Positions 10,760 to 30,950 of a stretch of 30,950 nt of DNA are shown here, in pieces. The notes beneath the pieces are model-generated. The model worked only from the letters and a program-made list of their open reading frames with translations, did not search any database and was not told where the DNA came from. Origin of the DNA: a virus (taxonomy: Duplodnaviria > Heunggongvirae > Uroviricota > Caudoviricetes). Made by a program: the position numbers and the translations under genes. The stretch lies in IMG/VR virus record IMGVR_UViG_2695420421_000007; one strand, written 5' to 3'. Every line of letters starts with the position of its first letter. The first letter of the stretch is position 1.

Positions 10760-10801
10760 AGCGCGCACAAAACAGGCAAAAACGGGATTTCAGAATCCCG
10801 T
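10709..10801. promoter_or_regulatory. Pair of near-identical 20-bp palindromes (ACGGGAyT-N4-AATCCCGT) about 73 bp apart, spanning the A stop and the parM-like upstream region
   Basis: 10709-10728 ACGGGACTcacgAATCCCGT and 10782-10801 ACGGGATTtcagAATCCCGT, each within the same AAAAACGGGA...GAATCCCGTAAA context. Confidence 0.35.
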
Positions 10802-10835
10802 AAACGATTAATTAATCAACATAAGGAAAAGCGAC

Positions 10836-11795
10836 ATGAAAATTTGTATCGACGACGGCTCCACCAACATCAAGCTGGCATGGACTGAGAACGGCGAACG
10901 CCGCAACGCCATCAGCCCGAACAGCTTCAAGTCGGAATGGTCTGCGCCGTTCGGTGGCATGCAGCCCGCGAACTACATGCTTGATGGCGTGCGCTATGGT
11001 TTTGATCCGGTCAGCGATCGCTTTGTCCAGACAACCGACACGCAATACCAGTACAGCGATGTAAATGTCATTGCCATTCATCACGCGCTGGTCAAATCAG
11101 GCATCACGCCACAGGAGGTGGATGTGGTTGTCACCCTGCCACTGAGCGAGTATTTCGACACAAACGCACAGCCGGACATGGCCAACATCAACCGCAAAAA
11201 AGCGAACGTTATGCGCCCGGTGGAGTACCAGAACGGCGAAGCATTCACTATCCGTAACGTGCGGGTTATGCCTGAATCCATTCCGGCTGGCTTTAAGGCA
11301 CTGGCTGACATGAGTCCGTTTGAATCCCTGCTGATTGTGGATTTGGGCGGAACCACGCTGGATGTGGCAAAGGTTCAGGGGCAACTGGCAGGTATCAGCC
11401 AGGTGTTTTGCGATCCACACGTAGGCGTTTCTCTGATGGCCGATGCCGTACTGTCGGTGATGGCCACTAACGGTATGCGCACCAGTCACCACATCGCCAA
11501 TACCATTATCGAACATCGCCATGATGAAGCCTGGCTGCGCCAGCACATCCACAATGACGCGCATTACGCCAGCCTGATGGCGGTTATTCGTGAAAAGGAA
11601 GAAACACTGAAACAACGCGTGATCCGCGCGCTGGCGGGTTTTTCGGGTTACGGGCGGGTGATGGTTGTCGGTGGAGGGGCGGAGATTGTGGCACCCGCTA
11701 TCCGCGAAGCCTGCGGAGTTAATGCGACTTTCATCGCGGACGGGGTGCCACAGTTTGCTCTGGTTAATGGGCTGTACGCAATGGACAAGGAGTAA
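10836..11795 (+). CDS. ParM/StbA-like actin-family ATPase (319 aa)
   Basis: N-terminus MKICIDDGSTNIKLAW and internal blocks (YQYSDVNVIAIHHAL, VDLGGTTLDVAKV, VPAGFKA) parallel plasmid R1 ParM as recalled from memory; strong Shine-Dalgarno AAGGAAAA upstream. Confidence 0.8.
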   Translation: MKICIDDGSTNIKLAWTENGERRNAISPNSFKSEWSAPFGGMQPANYMLDGVRYGFDPVSDRFVQTTDTQYQYSDVNVIAIHHALVKSGITPQEVDVVVTLPLSEYFDTNAQPDMANINRKKANVMRPVEYQNGEAFTIRNVRVMPESIPAGFKALADMSPFESLLIVDLGGTTLDVAKVQGQLAGISQVFCDPHVGVSLMADAVLSVMATNGMRTSHHIANTIIEHRHDEAWLRQHIHNDAHYASLMAVIREKEETLKQRVIRALAGFSGYGRVMVVGGGAEIVAPAIREACGVNATFIADGVPQFALVNGLYAMDKE

Positions 11796-11799
11796 ACCA

Positions 11800-12111
11800 A
11801 TGACGACACCAACCAGACGGATAAGTTTCTATCTGAAGCCTGCGGCCGTCAAGAACGAAAGCGAAGCATGCGCCTGGCTGGGCAGCCTTACACCAGAAGC
11901 CCGCAAAAGCGGCCAACGCGTGGCTTTTCTGGCCGGGCTGGCACTTCTGAAAATGAATCCAGCAGAGGCTTACCGACTGGCTGCATGGGCTGACGATGAG
12001 GCGTTATCGGTGACACAAACCAGGACAGAACGCCCCGTGCCACAGCCAGTACCAACCGCACAGATAACCAGTCAGATAGCAGGGAATATCCGGGCATTAT
12101 TTCCTGAATGA
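11800..12111 (+). CDS. Hypothetical protein (103 aa) in the ParR-equivalent position
   Basis: ATG at 11800 preceded by AAGGAG that overlaps the parM-like stop. No recognisable motif; assignment is by position only. Confidence 0.5.
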   Translation: MTTPTRRISFYLKPAAVKNESEACAWLGSLTPEARKSGQRVAFLAGLALLKMNPAEAYRLAAWADDEALSVTQTRTERPVPQPVPTAQITSQIAGNIRALFPE

Positions 12112-12696: not shown

Positions 12697-12932
12697 GTAA
12701 TTCAGCACGACTACAGCTTGGTTTTTCACCGCTATCAAAAACCATCGTATTGGCAAAAATGCGTGACTTAGGAGACGGAACAAAACGCCGCGTAGGAAAT
12801 GATCGCGGTCGCGATGTAACCAACGAGGCCGCTCAACTCGTTTGGCATCTAGTCATGGCAGAAGGCGGTGAAATTAATTGGGAGCTGGATGATGGTTCTC
12901 GTATGATTTTGAGGGCCGAGAAGAGTAAATAG
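12693..12932 (+). CDS. Hypothetical protein (79 aa), translationally coupled to the upstream gene
   Basis: GTG start overlapping the upstream TGA (GTGA). Confidence 0.45.
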   Translation: MSNSARLQLGFSPLSKTIVLAKMRDLGDGTKRRVGNDRGRDVTNEAAQLVWHLVMAEGGEINWELDDGSRMILRAEKSK

Positions 12933-12946
12933 CTCAAGGGGGATTA

Positions 12947-13132
12947 ATGCTAAATGATGATGAAGAAGAGCTGCTTATGCAGGAATGGTCGCTCGGTGAT
13001 TATGATAATGGTGAAAATGGGTGCCCGCATTGTGGCCGTTATCGTTTATGTATCTGCCAGAATGGAAAACACAGATGTGAAAAGTGCAATTGGTCTCCGG
13101 AACTTAATGACTACGTGCCGATCGAGTGGTAG
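12947..13132 (+). CDS. Small Cys-rich (putative zinc-ribbon) protein (61 aa)
   Basis: AAGGGGG Shine-Dalgarno then ATG; translation contains CPHCG...CIC...CEKC. The overlapping ORF 12954..13148 is rejected in its favour. Confidence 0.5.
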   Translation: MLNDDEEELLMQEWSLGDYDNGENGCPHCGRYRLCICQNGKHRCEKCNWSPELNDYVPIEW

Positions 13133-13139
13133 AGGTAAG

Positions 13140-13620
13140 TCACACTAGGTGTTTTTTAGTTGATTTTATAAATGCACAATAGTGCACAAATTTGCACAAT
13201 TTTTTTGAACGACTTTTTGCCCTTCCGGCCCGCGTGGCGGCTGGATCCGTCAAGGATCCGTGCATGCACAAAAAAACGCGTTTTTTCTGCGCGCAGGTGA
13301 CGGGGGAACAGCCCGCGTTTCAGGGGGTAAATAGCATTCCCTGAACGATGTCGCAGAGATACAACAGAATGGCTGTATTTCTCACGCTGAGCGTGAAAAA
13401 GACGTGAGGGCTTTTGATTTGATGGGGTGAAAGGTAAGGCCGTCAAAATCGCACTGAGACGGCGAGAATATGCAGTCAACGAGGTGGGATTGCGTAAGAG
13501 TCTGACTGTCGATGATGGCAATCAGCAGGAAAGCGTCGTGAAATTATCTGACTGATACAGGAGCTGGAGAGTCGGGGCATAAATTTTTTATGCCCCGGCG
13601 AAGCAGCAGACAAGCGAAGC
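13140..13620. other. Non-coding cos-proximal region (candidate cos / packaging site) between cargo genes and portal gene
   Basis: About 480 bp without credible ORFs in the position P2 cos occupies next to Q. Contains a triple direct repeat TGCACAA (13172-13200), a tandem GGATCCGT repeat (13242-13260) and the perfect palindrome AAAAAACGCGTTTTTT (13271-13286). Confidence 0.4.
13574..13596 (-). terminator. Perfect hairpin downstream of the portal gene (possible terminator of the leftward P-Q operon)
   Basis: GGGGCATAAA-tttt-TTATGCCCC inverted repeat 28 bp past the Q stop; no clean T-run, so terminator function is uncertain. Confidence 0.35.
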
Positions 13621-19435: not shown

Positions 19436-19930
19436 ATGAGTATGGTTGCCAGAACTGAACCCGGACCCGCAGAGGACGACATCACCGACACCGAAGATGG
19501 CGATACCCGTATTTCAGCGGGTGCATTCTGGCCGGATATTGTGCTGCGCGAGCTGCGTCTGGCGGTACGACTGCCGGGCCGCGTGACCACCTCCCGCCTG
19601 CTGCATACCGCCACCGGGGCCGTGGCACACGTTACCCGCGAGCTGGAAGCATGGCAGCAGGAACAGCAGGCGGCTGGCCATCAGACGCTGGCCGATGTTC
19701 CGGCACCTGTAATTAACGGAGAAAGCGTCAATCTCTGGCACTGGCGCAATGCTGTTTATACCGCCACACGCGCCCTGATTCTGGAGCGTTACCGCGATGC
19801 GGACACAACGGACAAGGGCGACCGCCGGGCGGACGCACTGGATATACAGACATCGGATTTGTGGCGCGATGTGAGCTGGGCCATCTCTGACATTCTGTGC
19901 CGCCCGCGAATCTTTGCGGAGTTGTGCTGA
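19436..19930 (+). CDS. L: Capsid completion protein (P2 gpL-like)
   Basis: Synteny and size match P2 L; start taken at ATG 19436 after AGGAG (ORF track starts at a GTG at 19427). Confidence 0.8.
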   Translation: MSMVARTEPGPAEDDITDTEDGDTRISAGAFWPDIVLRELRLAVRLPGRVTTSRLLHTATGAVAHVTRELEAWQQEQQAAGHQTLADVPAPVINGESVNLWHWRNAVYTATRALILERYRDADTTDKGDRRADALDIQTSDLWRDVSWAISDILCRPRIFAELC

Positions 19931-20127
19931 TGAAAGTGAAGACACTGGAAGGCGACACCGTGGATTCGCTCTGTTTCCGGTACTACGGCACGACGCAGGG
20001 CGTCACCGAAAAGGTGCTGGATGCCAACCCCGGACTCTGCCGACAGGTATTTCTGGAAGCCGGACAGGAGGTGGAAATGCCGGAGCCGGAGAAGAAAAAA
20101 CAACGAGAGATGATACAGCTATGGTAA
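19930..20127 (+). CDS. X: Tail protein X (P2 gpX-like, 65 aa)
   Basis: Internal start MKVKTLEGDTVDSLCFRYYG...VLDANPGL parallels P2 X as recalled; ATG overlaps the L stop. Confidence 0.8.
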   Translation: MKVKTLEGDTVDSLCFRYYGTTQGVTEKVLDANPGLCRQVFLEAGQEVEMPEPEKKKQREMIQLW

Positions 20128-20423
20128 CAGGTTTTTTTCAGCGGGTGAGTGACTGGATCACCTTCTGGGCATCAGTCACAGCCACCACAATAGGCGTGAT
20201 GACCATCAGTGAAAAAATCGCCCTTGCCGGGTTGTTACTCGGTTCTCTGTCTGCATTACATGCCTGGCGACATCGCCGCCTGATGGAAACCGCCATGCAG
20301 CGTCGCAATGAACTCATCGCCAGTATCCTGGCGCAGTCAGACGCACGGCCACTTCACGACAGTGAGCGTCAGGCTCTGAACATTCTGCGGGATAACGATA
20401 CACATGATAAAGCTGCCCGTTAA
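20121..20423 (+). CDS. Y: Putative holin (gpY-position, 100 aa)
   Basis: Internal ATG overlapping the X stop; two hydrophobic segments in the N-terminal half, charged C-terminus; lies directly upstream of the endolysin. Confidence 0.65.
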   Translation: MVTGFFQRVSDWITFWASVTATTIGVMTISEKIALAGLLLGSLSALHAWRHRRLMETAMQRRNELIASILAQSDARPLHDSERQALNILRDNDTHDKAAR

Positions 20424-20952
20424 ACGTTACGCCGTAGCCGCCATTGTGGCGCTGGGGTTCTCCATTGCCCCTCACAAACTCCGGACCAGCCCGGAAGCGC
20501 AAATCCGCATTGCCACATGGGAGGACTGTCGCGCAACGCCTTACCGGGATATTGCCGGGGTAATGACCGTGGGGTGCGGCTCGACCGGGCATGTGGAAAA
20601 TCGTCTGTACACCGAAACGGAAGTCGCCGGGCGCTGGGTTAATGATATGCAACATGCAGAAAACTGCATAAATCAGAACTTCAGCGGCAACGCCATGCCA
20701 CAGTCCGCGTTTGAGGCAATGACAGATGCCGCCTTTAATCTTGGATGCAGAAATCTTATGTGGTTCAGGGATAAGAACCGTAACTACCACCGCACCACTA
20801 TCTGGAAACATGCACAGGCGCACAACTGGCCTGACATGTGCAACAGACTGACTGACTTCGTGAACAGCGGCGGCGAACGCTCACAGGGACTGGTTAACCG
20901 TCGTACTGATTTTCGTGCATGGTGCTTACGTGACACCGGAGGCCAGTCATGA
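20404..20952 (+). CDS. SAR-type endolysin, T4-lysozyme-like glycoside hydrolase (182 aa)
   Basis: N-terminal weakly hydrophobic signal-anchor-release segment (AVAAIVALGFSIA) followed by a W-E-D-C...T catalytic region resembling phage 21 R21-type lysozymes as recalled; not similar to P2 K. Confidence 0.75.
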   Translation: MIKLPVKRYAVAAIVALGFSIAPHKLRTSPEAQIRIATWEDCRATPYRDIAGVMTVGCGSTGHVENRLYTETEVAGRWVNDMQHAENCINQNFSGNAMPQSAFEAMTDAAFNLGCRNLMWFRDKNRNYHRTTIWKHAQAHNWPDMCNRLTDFVNSGGERSQGLVNRRTDFRAWCLRDTGGQS

Positions 20953-21422
20953 AAGTGCGTTACATCCTGATGATGGCACTGACCGTCCTCACGCTGCTGA
21001 CCATAACACTCTGGCAGACATTCAGACTGGGGCAGGAAGACGGACACAACCGTTATACACAGGCGCAACTGGACGATTACAGCCGGACCCTGAAAGAGGC
21101 CGGCACCATCATCAGCACCGCATCCGGTGTACTGCGTGACGTCATGACAGCGCGCCAGAACCGACAACAGGAAGGGGAAATCCGACGTGAACAGCTACGC
21201 AACGATATCACGACAGATGCATGTGCCCGCGCTGTTCCTGACGCTCGCTTTACTGAGCGGTTGCACCAGCACGCAGAACGCGTCCGCGCCGCCGCCGTCG
21301 TTCCGTTTCATCCCGGAAGGGCTGACCGCCCCCGTACTTCCCCCGCCGTTTCCGGTGACGCCATCATGGGGAAACATCGGGATATGGAGCGACAGCCTCA
21401 TGGACGCACTGGAAACCTGTAA
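20949..21422 (+). CDS. Inner-membrane spanin (LysB/Rz-like, 157 aa)
   Basis: N-terminal transmembrane segment then coiled-coil-like region; next to the endolysin, with an embedded lipoprotein gene in another frame. Confidence 0.65.
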   Translation: MKVRYILMMALTVLTLLTITLWQTFRLGQEDGHNRYTQAQLDDYSRTLKEAGTIISTASGVLRDVMTARQNRQQEGEIRREQLRNDITTDACARAVPDARFTERLHQHAERVRAAAVVPFHPGRADRPRTSPAVSGDAIMGKHRDMERQPHGRTGNL

Positions 21423-21507
21423 CGCCGATAAGCGGGCCATTGAATTACTGGAACAGCGCAGGCTGCAACGACTGAACAACGAGGACAACAACCATGCTGA
21501 AAACTGA
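21217..21507 (+). CDS. Outer-membrane lipoprotein spanin (LysC/Rz1-like)
   Basis: Internal Met gives signal peptide plus lipobox (ALLSGC), Pro-rich mature region; starts inside the LysB-like gene in a different frame and extends beyond it, as in P2 lysC. Confidence 0.6.
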   Translation: MHVPALFLTLALLSGCTSTQNASAPPPSFRFIPEGLTAPVLPPPFPVTPSWGNIGIWSDSLMDALETCNADKRAIELLEQRRLQRLNNEDNNHAEN

Positions 21508-21961
21508 TTCCCTGCGTGAAGCCATGACCCGTTCATGCCGGTGGTGTCATGCCAACCCGGAAAAATTCACCATTTTCGTGGAGAGCGGCAACATTGAAAC
21601 GACCGGAGAAACCCCATCGTTTGTTTACCGCTATCAGATAGTGATGTTTGTCATGGATTACGCCGGAGAGCTGGACGACCTCACGCTGCCGCTGCTGGCG
21701 TGGTTATCCGAAAATCAGCCACAGTTGTTGCTCAATCCGGAGCGTAATCAGGACATCAAATTTTCCGCCGTTATCAATGACGATGACAGCGCCGATCTCC
21801 TGTTTACGCTCCCCCTGCGGGAACGCGTTCGCATCACGCGCAGCAGTCAGGGCACACCGCAGGCAGAACACCTGCCGGAGCCAAAACCCCGCCTGCCCTC
21901 TTCCGAAGGCGACTGGTCGCATGTATTCCAGGATGTGACGTGGGGGGAAAGCGATGGATAA
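21494..21961 (+). CDS. R: Tail completion protein (P2 gpR-like, 155 aa)
   Basis: MLKTDSLR...VPLLAWLSENQP parallels P2 R as recalled; same length. Confidence 0.82.
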   Translation: MLKTDSLREAMTRSCRWCHANPEKFTIFVESGNIETTGETPSFVYRYQIVMFVMDYAGELDDLTLPLLAWLSENQPQLLLNPERNQDIKFSAVINDDDSADLLFTLPLRERVRITRSSQGTPQAEHLPEPKPRLPSSEGDWSHVFQDVTWGESDG

Positions 21962-27217: not shown

Positions 27218-28268
27218 TGCGGAAGGTTACCTGGATTTTTTCAAAGGAGAGATAGGGAAAACACATCTGGCTCAGGAGCTGTGGACGCAGATTGATAACG
27301 GTCAGCTTGCGCCTGACCTGGCTGAAATCAGGACGTCCATTACGGATGTCAGCAATGAAATCACGCAGACTGTCAATAAGAAACTGAAAGACCAGAGTGC
27401 GGCAATCCAGCAGATACAGAAGGTTCAGGTTGATACAAATAATAATCTGAACAGCATGTGGGCTGTGAAGCTGCAACAGATGAAGGACGGACGCCTTTAT
27501 ATTGCGGGTATCGGTGCCGGTATTGAGAATACGCCAGCAGGAATGCAGAGTCAGGTGCTGCTGGCGGCAGACAGGATTGCGATGATTAATCCTGCGAATG
27601 GCAACACAAAGCCGATGTTTGTTGGTCAGGGCGATCAGATATTCATGAACGACGTGTTCCTGAAACGCCTGACGGCTCCCACCATTACCAGCGGCGGTAA
27701 TCCTCCGGCATTTTCCCTGACACCGGACGGAAAACTGACCGCTAAAAATGCAGATATCAGTGGCAGTGTGAATGCGAACGCCGGGACGCTCAACAATGTC
27801 ACAATTAATGAGAACTGTCAGATTAAGGGGAAACTGTCAGCCAACCAGATTGAAGGCGATATAGTCAAAACAGTGGGTAAGGCTTTTCCGCGGGACTCCC
27901 GGGCACCGGAGCGGTGGCCATCAGGGACCATTACCGTCAGGATTTATGACGATCAGCCTTTTGACAGGCAAATTGTTATTCCGGCGGTGGCATTCAGCGG
28001 CGCTAAACATGAGCGGGAGAATAACGATATTTATTCGTCATGCCGCCTGATAGTACGGAAAAACGGTGCTGAAATTTATAACCGTACCGCGCTGGATAAT
28101 ACGCTGATTTACAGTGGTGTTATTGATATGCCAGCTGGTCGCGGCCACATGACGCTGGAGTTTTCGGTGTCAGCATGGCTGGTGAATAACTGGTATCCCA
28201 CAGCAAGTATCAGCGATTTGCTGGTTGTGGTGATGAAGAAAGCCACCGCAGGCATCAGTATCAGCTGA
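27129..28268 (+). pseudogene. J: C-terminal fragment of a lambda J-like tail tip/host-specificity gene
   Basis: From about 27171 the translation parallels the lambda J C-terminus as recalled ([78 protein letters not shown]); the N-terminal bulk of J (about 1100 aa in lambda) is absent. Confidence 0.75.
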
Positions 28269-28287
28269 ATTTTATAACCCATATACG

Positions 28288-28314
28288 GGCGCCAGAAATG
28301 GCGCCTTTTTTATT
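28288..28314 (+). terminator. Rho-independent terminator downstream of the J-like fragment
   Basis: GGCGCC-agaaat-GGCGCC hairpin followed by TTTTTTATT. Confidence 0.6.
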
Positions 28315-28335
28315 GCAGAAAAGCGAGAGGTAATT

Positions 28336-28935
28336 ATGCGTAAAGTTTGTGCAGCAATTTTGTCCGCAGCCATCTGTCTGTCCGTATCCGGTGCGCCTGC
28401 ATGGGCGTCTGAACATCAGTCCACACTGAGCGCGGGGTATCTTCATGCCCGTACGAACGCTCCCGGCAGCGATAATCTGAACGGGATTAACGTGAAATAC
28501 CGTTATGAGTTTACGGACGCGCTGGGGCTGATTACGTCCTTCAGTTATGCCAATGCTGAGGATGAGCAAAAAACGCACTACAGCGATACCCGCTGGCATG
28601 AAGATTCCGTGCGTAACCGCTGGTTCAGCGTGATGGCGGGGCCGTCTGTACGCGTGAATGAATGGTTCAGCGCGTATGCGATGGTGGGTGTGGCTTACAG
28701 CCGTGTGTCGACTTTCTCCGGGGATTATCTCCGCGTAACTGACAACAAGGGGAAAACGCACGATGTGCTGACCGGAAGTGATGACGGTCGCCACAGCAAC
28801 ACGTCTCTGGCGTGGGGGGCTGGCGTGCAGTTTAACCCGACCGAATCCGTGACCATTGACCTTGCTTATGAAGGTTCCGGTAGTGGTGACTGGCGAACGG
28901 ATGCATTTATTGTTGGTATCGGATACCGTATCTGA
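28336..28935 (+). CDS. lom: Lom outer-membrane protein (Ail/Lom family, 199 aa)
   Basis: Signal peptide then beta-barrel-type alternating pattern with C-terminal ...GIGYRI; lies after J as in lambda. Confidence 0.85.
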   Translation: MRKVCAAILSAAICLSVSGAPAWASEHQSTLSAGYLHARTNAPGSDNLNGINVKYRYEFTDALGLITSFSYANAEDEQKTHYSDTRWHEDSVRNRWFSVMAGPSVRVNEWFSAYAMVGVAYSRVSTFSGDYLRVTDNKGKTHDVLTGSDDGRHSNTSLAWGAGVQFNPTESVTIDLAYEGSGSGDWRTDAFIVGIGYRI

Positions 28936-29040
28936 CAACAGACGCCGATTTATCTTCTGTAAATATTGTTATGATACGCAGGTTCATCCACCTTATGGGG
29001 TGAACTGCGTTTGAGGAAACGTAAAGTTACACTGTCCTGA

Positions 29041-29073
29041 AGCCCGTGGCGTCACTGCTGCGGGCTTTTTTTA
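29041..29073 (+). terminator. Rho-independent terminator-like hairpin between lom and stf
   Basis: AGCCCG-N14-CGGGCT followed by TTTTTTT, about 15 bp upstream of the stf start. Confidence 0.5.
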
Positions 29074-29086
29074 TTGGTGGAAAAGT

Positions 29087-30950
29087 ATGACAGTAAAAAT
29101 TTCTGGCGTGCTTAAAGATGGCACAGGAAAACCAGTACAGAACTGCACCATTGTGCTGAAGGCCAGACGAACCAGCAGCACGATGGTGGTGAACACGGTG
29201 GCCTCTGAAAATCCGGATGAAGCCGGACGTTACAGCATGGATGTTGAGCATGGTCAGTACAGCGTCACCCTGCTGGTTGAAGGTTTTCCGCCTTCACATG
29301 CCGGGACCATTACCGTCTATGAAGGTTCCAGACCAGGTACGCTGAATGATTTTCTCGGTGCCATGACGGAGGATGATGTCCGACCGGAGGCACTGCGCCG
29401 CTTTGAGCAGATGGTGGAAGAGGTGTCACGTAACGCCTCCGCGGTTGCACAGAATACGGCAGCCGCGAAAAAATCAGCCAGCGAGGCGGCAACTCATGCA
29501 ACCGATGCTGCAGCCTCAGCACGTGCCGCCAGCACGTCAGCCGGACAGGCCGCGTCGTCGGCTCAGTCAGCGTCTTCCAGCGCAGGAACGGCATCGACAA
29601 AGGCCCGTGAAGCAGCAAAAAGTGCTGCTGCAGAGTCATCAAAAAGCGCGGCAGCTACCAGCGCCAGTGCCGCGAAAACGTCAGAAACGAATGCCGCAGC
29701 ATCACAAAAATCGGCAGCCACTTCTGCATCCACAGCGACCACGAAGGCGTCAGAAGCTGCCACCTCGGCACGGGGTGCGGCGGCCTCAAAAGAGGCAGCG
29801 AAATCTTCAGAAACGAATGCATCATCAAGTGCCAGTAGTGCAGCTTCCTCGGCAACGGCGGCAGGAAATTCCGCGAAGGCGGCAAAAACGTCCGAGACGA
29901 ACGCTAAGTCTTCTGAAACAGCAGCGGGACAGAGCGCCTCAGCTGCGGCAGGTTCAAAAACAGCGGCTGCATTATCTGCCAGTGCCGCGTCAACAAGTGC
30001 CGGGCAGGCCTCAGCCAGTGCCACCGCCGCCGGAAAATCGGCAGAAAGCGCCGCATCATCCGCTTCAACAGCCACAACGAAGGCTGGCAAAGCCACTGAG
30101 CAAGCCACTGCAGCAGCGAGGTCTGCTTCTGCAGCAAAAACCTCTGAAACAAATGCAAAGACTTCAGCAGACAATGCTGCTTCCTCTAAGGCAGCAGCCG
30201 CATCGTCAGCCAGTTCAGCGGCGTCATCGGCATCATCTGCGTCTGCTTCAAAAGATGAGGCGACCAGACAAGCGTCAGCAGCGAAAGGTAGTGCCACGAC
30301 AGCAACAACGAAAGCATCAGAGGCGGCAGGCAGTGCGACGGCTGCATCTCAGAGCAAAGTTGCTGCTGAATCCGCGGCAACGCGCGCCGAGACAGCAGCA
30401 AAACGGGCAGAGGATATTGCATCCGCCGTGGCGCTGGAGGATGCGAGCACGACGAAAAAGGGGATAGTACAGCTCAGCAGTGCGACCAACAGCACTTCCG
30501 AGTCACTGGCGGCAACGCCAAAAGCGGTTAAGGCGGTAATGGGTGAAACGAACAAGAAAGCGCCCTTAAATAGTCCTGCACTGACCGGAACGCCAACAAC
30601 ACCAACTGCGCGACAGGGAACGAATAATACCCAAATCGCAAGCACGGCTTTCGTTATGGCTGCGATTGCCGCCCTTGTAGATTCGTCACCTGATGCACTG
30701 AACACGCTGAACGAGCTGGCTGCGGCGCTGGGCAACGACCCGAATTTTGCGACCACCATGACTAACGCGCTTGCGGGTAAGCAACCGAAAGATGCCACCC
30801 TGACGGCGCTGGCCGGACTTACTACTGCGGCAGGCAAGTTTCCGTATTTTACGGGGAATGATGTCGCCAGCCTGGCAACCCTGACAAAAGTCGGGCGGGA
30901 TATTCTTGCGAAATCGACCGTTGCTGCCGTTATCGAATACCTCGGTTTAC
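29087..30950 (+). CDS. stf: Side tail fibre protein Stf (lambda-type), 5' partial; continues past the window end
   Basis: ATG at 29087 with GGTGG upstream; N-terminus MTVKISGVLKDGTGKPVQNCTIVLKARR...GFPPSHAGTITVYEGSRPGTLNDFL parallels lambda Stf as recalled, followed by an Ala/Ser/Thr-rich repetitive region and the conserved [20 protein letters not shown] block. No stop before 30950. Confidence 0.85.
   Translation, partial: MTVKISGVLKDGTGKPVQNCTIVLKARRTSSTMVVNTVASENPDEAGRYSMDVEHGQYSVTLLVEGFPPSHAGTITVYEGSRPGTLNDFLGAMTEDDVRPEALRRFEQMVEEVSRNASAVAQNTAAAKKSASEAATHATDAAASARAASTSAGQAASSAQSASSSAGTASTKAREAAKSAAAESSKSAAATSASAAKTSETNAAASQKSAATSASTATTKASEAATSARGAAASKEAAKSSETNASSSASSAASSATAAGNSAKAAKTSETNAKSSETAAGQSASAAAGSKTAAALSASAASTSAGQASASATAAGKSAESAASSASTATTKAGKATEQATAAARSASAAKTSETNAKTSADNAASSKAAAASSASSAASSASSASASKDEATRQASAAKGSATTATTKASEAAGSATAASQSKVAAESAATRAETAAKRAEDIASAVALEDASTTKKGIVQLSSATNSTSESLAATPKAVKAVMGETNKKAPLNSPALTGTPTTPTARQGTNNTQIASTAFVMAAIAALVDSSPDALNTLNELAAALGNDPNFATTMTNALAGKQPKDATLTALAGLTTAAGKFPYFTGNDVASLATLTKVGRDILAKSTVAAVIEYLGL
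30460..30950. repeat. Direct repeat copy 2 (inside stf) of the tail-fibre segment
   Basis: Matches 25470..25960 at a constant offset of 4990 bp; truncated by the window end. Confidence 0.8.

Follow-up and report, generated by a model that had tools for sequence, protein, structure and literature searches.

A probable pinholin and signal-anchor-release endolysin module in the lysis cassette of a P88-like Escherichia coli prophage

The hol-lys-orf25 genes of the Haemophilus phage HP1 (Peduoviridae) have been described experimentally as a cassette of a pinholin and a signal-anchor-release (SAR) endolysin (PMC7312051). HP1 Hol kills cells without lysis, causes no leak of β-galactosidase and is needed for lysis in vivo. 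In these respects it behaves as a pinholin, an indirect assignment that was made from β-galactosidase retention and viability assays only and was accompanied by the report of an unusual topology (PMC7312051). HP1 Lys was shown to lyse E. coli alone, and phage release was sensitive to azide (PMC7312051). The prototype of SAR endolysins activated by disulfide isomerisation is P1 Lyz (PDB 1XJT and 1XJU), which carries C13 in its anchor and a caged C51-C44. P1 uses several unlinked holins. Its Lyz functions together with two holins, LydA and LydC, and also with the pinholin LydD (PMC9025707), so that a SAR endolysin needs no pinholin. Release by a pinholin is the definitive test of a SAR endolysin, and the true-lysozyme triad motif has been defined as E-x8-D/C-x5-T (PMC9239132). 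The cassette type is known experimentally in HP1 and bioinformatically in P2-like prophages of Klebsiella, among which the ‘KP12’ cassette (PMC9902359) is an example, and the mechanism considered here is not new.

A related set of genes is present in the stretch of tailed-phage DNA analysed here (30,950 nucleotides, IMG/VR record IMGVR_UViG_2695420421_000007; hereafter the window), a prophage that carries the full complement of P2-type genes. As the first-pass annotation had proposed, positions 20121-21507 hold four tightly overlapping genes, all on the plus strand, between tail genes X and R. The stop codon of gene X (gpX, 19930..20127, plus strand; PF05489 at 7e-21) overlaps the start of a gene for a 100 aa holin (ATGGTAA; 20121..20423; phrog_1350, holin, at 5.9e-21). 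This is followed by a 182 aa GH24 muramidase endolysin with a predicted N-terminal signal-anchor (20404..20952; PF00959 at 4.5e-23; phrog_7, endolysin), a 157 aa Rz/LysB-like i-spanin (20949..21422; phrog_214 at 1.3e-22) and an Rz1/LysC o-spanin (21217, ATG, or 21187, GTG, to 21507; PF23793, LysC, at 5.5e-12), with gpR (PF06891) at 21494-21961. The endolysin and holin genes overlap by 20 nt and the Rz start overlaps the endolysin stop by 4 nt (ATGA). This second overlap leaves no room for lysA, and no ORF lies between lys and Rz. The earlier statement that a holin-position gene and an overlapping spanin pair flank the endolysin, with no lysA, is thus borne out by the ORFs and their family matches. 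The interval also contains four antisense ORFs and one alternative-frame ORF, none of which has a Pfam match that would point to a hidden antiholin or lysA-like gene, and no internal promoter or terminator exceeding shuffle expectation was found within the cassette.

The gene order, the holin/endolysin overlap and the Rz-like gene that comes next are all shared with HP1, a phage of the same virus family, although the HP1 cassette lies after the tail tube gene rather than between X and R and the HP1 spanins have no detectable similarity to those of the window. The X-to-R position and the overlapped LysB/LysC-type spanins are in turn shared with the Y-K-lysA-lysB-lysC genes of P2, but the window cassette has no similarity to Y, K or LysA. 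We consider it probable that these four genes make up the whole lysis cassette of an E. coli FDAARGOS_943 prophage of the P88-like kind (Xuanwuvirus, Peduoviridae), and that an HP1-type pinholin and SAR-endolysin module has taken the place of the resident canonical holin and soluble M15 peptidase.

The endolysin had been suggested to be of the SAR type rather than a P2 K-type lysozyme. In BLASTP comparisons it is 42% identical to HP1 Lys (4e-36) and 41% identical to P1 Lyz (4e-35; PDB 1XJT at 4e-31, 111.5 bits), whereas P2 K shows no similarity (E=2). Identity to R21/RrrD is 25%, with 26.9 bits for 3HDE and 28 bits for 4ZPU. The top Foldseek match of the AF2 model (pLDDT 88.9) is 1XJT, the active form of P1 Lyz (TM 0.85, rmsd 2.0 Å, 172 columns), which shares both the anchor and the packed N-terminal helix and is the best match in sequence as well as in structure. 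Judged from these alignments, the endolysin belongs by sequence in one family with P1 Lyz and HP1 Lys and is only distantly related to R21. The catalytic region WEDCRATPYRDIAGVMTVGC (20521..20577, plus strand), read from the sequence and aligned to P1 Lyz, contains the triad E40-x8-D49-x5-T55 directly after the anchor. The relevant codons are E40 (20521-23), C42 (20527-29), D49 (20548-50), T55 (20566-68) and C58 (20575-77), the first four residues aligning to E42, C44, C51 and T57 of P1 Lyz. A basic and weakly hydrophobic N-terminus followed by a muralytic domain supports the predicted assignment to the SAR class. A cytoplasmic K-type lysozyme was considered and ruled out on the lack of similarity to P2 K; the M15 peptidase of P88 is also unrelated.

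The first-pass annotation also proposed that the protein in the position of gpY may act as a pinholin. By hydropathy it is a class II holin with two hydrophobic segments, a weakly hydrophobic TMD1 at about residues 12-30 (nt 20154-20210) and a TMD2 at about residues 33-49 (nt 20217-20267). An invariant S-E-K turn links the two, and a charged C-terminal tail of 50 aa comes after them. The sequence has neither a dual-start motif nor an in-frame upstream start. HP1 Hol, too, combines two hydrophobic segments with a charged C-terminal tail and lacks a dual start; the window holin is 22 aa longer at the C-terminus. The two proteins align colinearly over 72 aa (BLASTP 31% identity, E=3e-6; hhalign E=6e-5, probability 65%). 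A custom profile built from 10 sequences of the holin family scores HP1 Hol at 24.1 bits, EssD at 8.5 and P2 Y at 3.1, with the P88 holin below zero. Against PF16080 (Phage_holin_2_3, the HP1 holin family) the window holin scores 18.8 bits (E=1.6e-3), which is under the 28.8-bit gathering cut-off, while HP1 Hol itself scores 84.6. These comparisons indicate that the holin and HP1 Hol are distantly homologous, and to that extent they support the proposed pinholin role computationally. The S21 pinholin family (PF04971) was rejected as a candidate: there was no Pfam match, BLASTP gave no alignment to S21/EssD and hhalign returned a probability of 0.2%. No similarity was found to P1 LydA/B/C/D/E, P2 Y, P2 LysA or the P88 holin, and no NCBIfam model matches the holin or the spanins.

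Relatives of the holin number 11 in a word-index protein search and only 20 representatives in an exhaustive profile search, and the family is therefore a small one. In all 68 loci with a holin homologue the next, overlapping gene downstream encodes a member of the SAR-endolysin family, a linkage to be read as that of one cassette lineage and not as 68 independent observations. Two frame-shifted library representatives, P0065 and P0073, likewise run into a SAR-like N-terminus. We propose, from the homology to HP1 Hol and the exclusive pairing with SAR endolysins, that the holin is a putative pinholin. The enzyme might instead be paired with a canonical large-hole holin or another non-pinhole holin, as P1 Lyz is when it works with LydA (PMC9025707). 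Such a pairing would fit the absence of similarity to S21/EssD, the sole structurally dissected pinholin family, and the weakness of the similarity to HP1 Hol, whose own assignment comes from β-galactosidase retention and viability. We nevertheless regard it as unlikely, given that the protein has two short TMDs of which the first is weakly hydrophobic, that it is homologous to HP1 Hol from end to end and in colinear order and that across the 68 loci a soluble endolysin never adjoins the holin. The displaced holin, moreover, is of the three-TMD lambda-S type, and it is this type that is paired with a soluble enzyme in P88.

The preferred reading, a pinholin acting with a SAR endolysin, also depends on the N-terminus of the enzyme, MIKLPVKR-YAVAAIVALGFSIAP-HK. 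Its SAR-like segment (residues 1-23; 20404..20472, plus strand), delimited by hydropathy, composition and conservation, consists of the basic residues K3, K7 and R8 followed by 15 uncharged residues, Y9-P23 (nt 20428-20472). The core is 47% Gly/Ala/Ser/Thr, with a Kyte-Doolittle 15-mer mean of 1.93; no comparable N-terminal segment shows up in the hydropathy of P2 K and P88 Lys, used as soluble controls. The uncharged stretch has 15 residues, against 24 in both P1 Lyz and RrrD/R21 and 20 in HP1 Lys, and the anchors of the SAR endolysins used for comparison (P1 Lyz, HP1 Lys, RrrD and phiT5282H) span 18-24 residues, all of them longer. An anchor of this length would be marginal for spanning a bilayer and is much like the h- and c-regions found in a typical Sec signal peptide. 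Were the segment a normal cleaved signal peptide, the product would be a soluble periplasmic enzyme under some control other than tethering. The 15-residue core, the n-h-c layout and an S-I-A at -3/-1 are all in keeping with this, and HP1 Lys too was scored as a signal peptide by SignalP (PMC7312051). The S-I-A site, the only -3/-1 site and otherwise an ideal signal-peptidase site, is however followed at +1 by P23, which is invariant in the 39 cluster representatives and present in 45 of 46 locus variants. Proline at +1 blocks cleavage by signal peptidase I. The N-terminal segment is conserved as much as the catalytic domain, with I14 and L17 at least 90% conserved, and the AF2 model places a helix at residues 11-21 (pLDDT about 93) packed on the enzyme body as in 1XJT. 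A constitutively active periplasmic muramidase would in addition cause premature lysis. The invariant Pro23 and the strongly conserved hydrophobic core thus favour a retained structural element over a disposable signal peptide, and we consider cleavage to be very unlikely.

The last two genes fit the LysB/LysC-type overlapped class of two-component spanins (PF23793, phrog_214, lipobox). The i-spanin has an N-terminal TMD at residues 5-25 by hydropathy and is 39% identical to the DUF2570 i-spanin of P88 (9e-28). The o-spanin is 96 aa long from the ATG at 21217 or 106 aa from the GTG at 21187, and carries a lipobox, LLSG-C16 (Cys codon 21262-21264), ahead of a Pro-rich mature part. Its gene starts inside Rz in another frame and ends 85 nt past it, an overlapped architecture. 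RefSeq does not annotate the i-spanin and flags LysC as a partial pseudogene, yet its reading frame shows no break: LysC aligns with P88 LysC colinearly and without gaps, 73 of 96 residues being identical, including all of the last 33.

That the lysis module had been exchanged was part of the first-pass annotation, which took P2 as its reference. The exchange can be mapped, and the proper baseline for it is P88, whose backbone is the closest among sequenced phages. The window shares with P88 its flanking late genes, the X ... R position of the cassette, the C-terminus of LysC and a homologous i-spanin. The backbone is 95-100% identical to P88 (Xuanwuvirus) as far as about 20060 and once more beyond about 21400. 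Sliding-window identity, 92-100% before the exchange, drops to 72% over 20040-20123, so the last 15 or so codons of X lie within the exchanged segment. The holin and lys genes have no nucleotide match to P88, against 95-98% identity for the backbone segments; in P88 the resident genes encode a three-TMD lambda-S-type holin (PF05106) and a soluble Peptidase_M15_4 endolysin that, unlike the window enzyme, has no N-terminal hydrophobic segment. A P88-like backbone with other lysis genes indicates that about 1.3 kb, approximately 20080..21400 by sliding-window identity and blastn, was replaced as a unit that reaches from the 3' end of X through the holin, endolysin and Rz genes to about two-thirds of the way into LysC. 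From blastn, the i-spanin was at one stage taken for a chimera of recent origin, joined at about 21168. This was revised when sliding-window comparison showed the region 21157-21400 to be homologous to P88 but diverged (58-85%), with the recent junction near 21400, inside lysC.

The same four genes with the same overlaps are found in other Peduoviridae, such as phiT5282H (Enterobacter, Novemvirus) and Klebsiella P2-like prophages, with endolysins 61-69% and holins 49% identical to those of the window. In these phages the cassette has diverged as far as the backbone and is therefore native there, not imported. The nearest cassettes (L018 and L019) are 74-76% identical in nucleotide sequence and about 80% in amino-acid sequence, and searches of the phage, IMG/VR, GTDB and E. 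coli collections yielded no close donor of the module. The exact allele occurs in only 1 of 5426 complete E. coli genomes, and identical cassettes are present on six IMG/VR contigs. It is hardly credible that the cassette no longer functions and is decaying within a defective prophage, as the rarity of the allele and the RefSeq record (LysC a partial pseudogene, the i-spanin omitted, the holin hypothetical) might suggest, when all four ORFs are intact, LysC is gap-free against P88 LysC, the P2-type gene complement is full and the six contigs carry the identical cassette.

If the cassette is indeed an HP1-type pinholin and SAR-endolysin module, its action may be outlined as follows. From the sequence, all four genes are part of the late X-to-R operon, and overlaps of 4-20 nt couple their translation. 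By homology, the endolysin would be exported by Sec through its N-terminal basic and hydrophobic segment. Because the only good cleavage site has an invariant Pro at +1 the anchor would stay uncleaved, and the enzyme would thus be tethered, inactive, to the inner membrane. The two-TMD holin would accumulate and trigger, forming small depolarising lesions and not micron-scale holes. With the proton-motive force lost, the short and weakly hydrophobic anchor could exit the bilayer and, as the model suggests, the released helix could pack against the catalytic domain in the way seen in active P1 Lyz, allowing the muramidase to degrade peptidoglycan. Activation would be conformational, as in R21, and the LysB/LysC-type spanin pair would then disrupt the outer membrane.

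The enzyme had also been likened to the phage 21 type, a comparison that holds in part. No cysteine is present in residues 1-41, Tyr9 standing where relatives carry Cys, and D49 is found at the position of P1 C51; C42 (P1 C44) is kept and an extra cysteine, C58, replaces P1 Ile60. Where P1 Lyz has anchor C13 and the caged C51-C44, the window enzyme thus has Tyr9, Asp49 and only C42, and it has neither the anchor Cys nor the P1-type Cys-Cys arrangement of HP1 Lys. The lack of an anchor Cys together with Asp in the triad makes activation by disulfide isomerisation as in P1 Lyz impossible, and without the thiol-switch cysteine pair, and with an E-x8-D-x5-T triad, regulation would resemble that of the phage-21 class. 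The cassette shares with R21/RrrD and S21 (EssD) a SAR muramidase with this triad and no anchor cysteine, as well as a two-TMD holin partner. The sequence and fold of the enzyme are of the P1/HP1 type, not the phage 21 type, and the window cassette differs further in that its holin is unrelated to S21/EssD, it has no dual-start antiholin and the Gly-rich anchor of R21 is absent.

The residues concerned covary perfectly among the cluster representatives, 13 of which have Y9/D49/C58 and 25 C9/C49/I58, and each of the 46 locus variants shows one or other of these combinations. The enzymes of phiT5282H and the Klebsiella prophages are of the cysteine (P1-like) subtype, C9/C49/I58, unlike that of the window. 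As the Y9/D49/C58 subclade looks monophyletic, the covariation may record a single event. It is possible, and we put it forward tentatively as less likely to be right than wrong, that in this subclade of P1-Lyz-like SAR enzymes the thiol switch was lost in a single concerted step, in which Tyr replaced the anchor Cys, Asp the triad Cys and Cys Ile58 while C42 stayed, that the orphaned C42 perhaps forms a fixed C42-C58 disulfide and that control is now conformational as in R21. If this is true, enzymes that are 65-69% identical and work with the same holin family would do so by two distinct activation mechanisms, and would offer a natural system for the study of how control modes of SAR endolysins interconvert.

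Several entries in public annotation are corrected by this analysis: members of the holin family are labelled ‘phage tail protein’ or ‘hypothetical’, a call for the i-spanin is missing and LysC is wrongly given as a pseudogene. The cassette is a tidy example of module exchange in a P2-family E. coli prophage, a recent swap with mapped breakpoints, probably from one to the other of the two main strategies by which Gram-negative phages lyse their hosts, canonical holin with soluble endolysin and pinholin with SAR endolysin. With its P88-like backbone, the prophage could allow the timing of lysis and the burst size under these two strategies to be compared in an isogenic setting.

Four plus-strand genes are tightly packed at 20121-21507, between the plus-strand tail gene X (19930-20127; PF05489) upstream and the tail completion gene R (21494-21961; PF06891) downstream. 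The first encodes a holin of 100 amino acids (20121-20423) that matches phrog_1350 ('holin', 5.9e-21) and, weakly, the HP1 holin family PF16080 (18.8 bits against a cut-off of 28.8). It is followed by a 182-residue endolysin (20404-20952; PF00959, Phage_lysozyme, 4.5e-23; phrog_7), by a 157-residue Rz-like i-spanin with a strongly hydrophobic N-terminal TMD (20949-21422; phrog_214, 1.3e-22) and, in a different frame, by a 96-residue o-spanin, LysC (21217-21507; PF23793, 5.5e-12), with the lipobox LLSG-C and a Pro-rich mature region. The overlaps between consecutive genes measure 7, 20 and 4 nt from X to the i-spanin and 14 nt between lysC and R. The gene for the o-spanin starts within Rz and ends 85 nt past it, which is the 'overlapped' architecture of P2 LysB/LysC. 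There is no lysA-like gene in 20121-21507, no promoter-like or terminator-like site was found within the cassette, and its opposite-strand and alternative-frame ORFs gave no family match. The first-pass annotation had described this cassette correctly, in its coordinates as in its overlapping spanins and lack of a lysA-like gene.

The endolysin had been proposed not to be a P2 K-type lysozyme. In agreement with this, BLASTP detected no similarity to P2 K (E=2), and the endolysin's closest solved structures are both forms of P1 Lyz (1XJT, 4e-31; 1XJU, 2.4e-30). R21 (3HDE) and RrrD of DLP12 (4ZPU) reach only ~27-28 bits, and pairwise identity is 42% to HP1 Lys, 41% to P1 Lyz and 25% to RrrD. An AlphaFold2 model built from 39 homologues (mean pLDDT 88.9) contains a helix at residues 11-21 (pLDDT ~93), and Foldseek ranked 1XJT, the active full-length P1 Lyz, first among its matches (TM-score 0.85, rmsd 2.0 A). 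As this alignment extends over 172 columns, it takes in the N-terminal helix, which packs against the body. The protein is very likely to be an exported, anchor-bearing muramidase of the P1/HP1 family.

The N-terminus of the endolysin reads MIKLPVKR-YAVAAIVALGFSIAP-HKLR. After three basic residues come 15 that include no D, E, K, R or H; their Gly/Ala/Ser/Thr content is 47% and the Kyte-Doolittle 15-mer mean is 1.93. The same analysis gave a 15-mer mean of 2.44 and 24 uncharged residues for P1 Lyz, 2.2 and 24 for RrrD, and 20 uncharged residues for HP1 Lys, with no comparable segment in the soluble P2 K and P88 endolysins. Judged by hydropathy, the weakly hydrophobic segment noticed in the first-pass annotation is real and of the predicted SAR (signal-anchor-release) kind, though short. 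Taken alone, it also looks like the h- and c-regions of a signal peptide for Sec export, and the residues S-I-A stand at -3/-1 of a potential cleavage site. However, the +1 residue of that site is a Pro that 39/39 cluster representatives and 45 of the 46 distinct locus variants share, and Pro at +1 is known to prevent cleavage by signal peptidase I. Furthermore, conservation of the hydrophobic core (I14 and L17 at 90% or above) is as strong as that of the catalytic domain, and the core is modelled within the fold. These two observations argue for an anchor that would be retained rather than cleaved.

SAR endolysins are established both with and without a thiol switch. In the scheme attributed to Xu and colleagues in 2005, a C44-C51 disulfide reportedly keeps P1 Lyz inactive, and attack on it by the anchor cysteine C13 activates the enzyme; the titles of the P1 Lyz crystal structures agree with this scheme. 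In the window enzyme C42 (equivalent to C44) is kept, Asp49 occupies the position of C51 and the anchor has no cysteine, so that the protein belongs by descent to the P1 Lyz family yet cannot operate the thiol switch. The earlier assignment to the phage 21 type therefore stands as regards the absence of this switch and the triad E-x8-D-x5-T, but not as regards ancestry, RrrD being distant. Residues 9, 42, 49 and 58 (plus-strand codons 20428-20430, 20527-20529, 20548-20550 and 20575-20577) form a perfect four-column pattern, with only two combinations among 46 distinct endolysins of related loci and 39 independent cluster representatives: the P1-like C9/C42/C49 with I, M or L at 58, as in phiT5282H, and the Y9/C42/D49/C58 of the window. 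That C58 is gained precisely where the partner cysteines are lost suggests a fixed C42-C58 disulfide, which may have replaced the thiol switch. Within the window's subtype, identity to the window enzyme is 69% or more in every member; the subtype therefore looks monophyletic and the covariation may record one event.

The holin has a weakly hydrophobic segment (residues 12-30, 53% Gly/Ala/Ser/Thr) and a hydrophobic one (residues 33-49), separated by an invariant S-E-K turn and followed by RHRR and a 50-residue charged tail. Its gene contains no second in-frame start and hence no lambda- or 21-type antiholin. The protein shows no relationship to P2 Y, the P88 holin, S21/EssD, P2 LysA or the P1 Lyd proteins. 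It shares 31% identity over 72 residues with the HP1 holin (BLASTP E=3e-6; hhalign E=6e-5), and a profile of ten family members, some of them divergent representatives recovered by an exhaustive search, scored HP1 Hol at 24.1 bits, against 8.5 for EssD, 3.1 for P2 Y and below zero for the P88 holin. On these comparisons it is a distant, colinear relative of the HP1 holin. HP1 hol kills E. coli without lysis or release of beta-galactosidase, HP1 Lys alone lyses E. coli, phage release is stopped by the SecA inhibitor azide, and the authors concluded that HP1 uses a pinholin and a SAR endolysin (Adamczyk-Poplawska et al., 2020; PMC7312051). An overview from the Young laboratory states that a pinholin is present in most phages with a SAR endolysin and that release by a pinholin is the definitive test (PMC9239132). 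At 68 of 68 loci with a holin homologue (7 from genomes, 61 from IMG/VR), the next, overlapping gene encodes a homologue of the window endolysin (66-100% identity), although these loci form one cassette lineage and the evidence is weaker than the count implies. To our knowledge a pinholin works only with a self-exported endolysin, and this pairing is therefore a prediction of the pinholin model. By analogy with HP1, the balance favours a pinholin.

The closest phages, P88 and its relatives (Xuanwuvirus, Peduoviridae), match the flanks only. Nucleotide identity to P88 is 92-100% up to ~20070, there is no match in the holin and lys genes, and identity of 58-85% over 21157-21400 indicates that Rz and the LysC N-terminus are homologous yet diverged. 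From ~21400 it is again 92-100%, the final 33 LysC residues being identical. The entire lysis module (~1.3 kb) has therefore been exchanged, starting in the 3' end of X and finishing within lysC. The lambda-S family holin of P88 has three TMDs (PF05106, 1.1e-19) and its Peptidase_M15_4 endolysin lacks a hydrophobic N-terminus, and on sequence grounds a canonical holin and soluble endolysin have given way to an HP1-type system. The earlier suggestion of module exchange is thus upheld by a mapped swap, but its proper baseline is P88, not P2; P88 likewise has no lysA. No near-identical donor of the module was found in the phage, IMG/VR, GTDB and E. coli collections.

The cassette is 100% identical to one on the E. 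coli FDAARGOS_943 chromosome (NZ_CP065615.1), in a complete-looking P2-family prophage adjoining pdxB. The exact allele occurs in one of 5426 complete E. coli genomes, a related cassette (~73% nucleotide identity) in 69 and P88-type lysC DNA in 695. Other carriers include Enterobacter phage phiT5282H, Klebsiella prophages and prophages of Edwardsiella, Citrobacter, Erwinia, Pantoea and Kosakonia; in these, divergence from the window is about the same for the cassette as for the backbone (66-76%), which indicates that the cassette is native to those lineages. At loci from Erwinia tracheiphila (L010) and an IMG/VR contig (L057) the same holin-endolysin pair precedes different spanins (a 171-aa Rz and a nearly embedded 101-aa Rz1), so that spanins also reassort independently of this pair. 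Elsewhere in the prophage, RefSeq annotates plasmid-type segregation genes (ParM and a partition/stability protein, ~10801-12076) and oppositely oriented tail-fibre and tail-fibre-assembly genes beside a 'recombinase family protein' (~27534-29682), the latter group having the look of a Cin/Gin-type invertible segment for host range. RefSeq shows no feature in the roughly 700 bp (~12930-13620) that separate the portal gene from the early-region genes.

In the RefSeq/PGAP annotation the i-spanin ORF (20949-21422) is absent and LysC is an incomplete pseudogene (21217-21387). The 96-aa LysC ORF is colinear with P88 LysC, with no gaps and 73/96 residues identical. The holin family has only 20 representatives in a library of 1.84 billion proteins and no NCBIfam model; NCBI names its members (clusters P0001, P0006 and P0010; E. 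coli matches H78-H83) 'phage tail protein' or 'hypothetical protein'. Two 'holin' representatives (P0065, P0073) are read-through or frame-shifted calls that run on into the SAR endolysin downstream, as far as its N-terminal anchor, incidentally confirming the pairing.

The feature is real, its overall interpretation in the first-pass annotation was correct, and the full model of the cassette is likely to hold. The literature already describes P2-family phages that combine a small class II holin and overlapped spanins with a SAR endolysin resembling P1 Lyz: the HP1 cassette has been studied experimentally (PMC7312051), and a Klebsiella P2-like cassette has been described by modelling (PMC9902359). 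Three points go slightly past this record: the systematic mis-annotation of holin and spanins, the coordinated Y9/D49/C58 versus C9/C49/I58 substitution, and, on a P88 backbone, the recent replacement of one lysis strategy by another, with its limits mapped.
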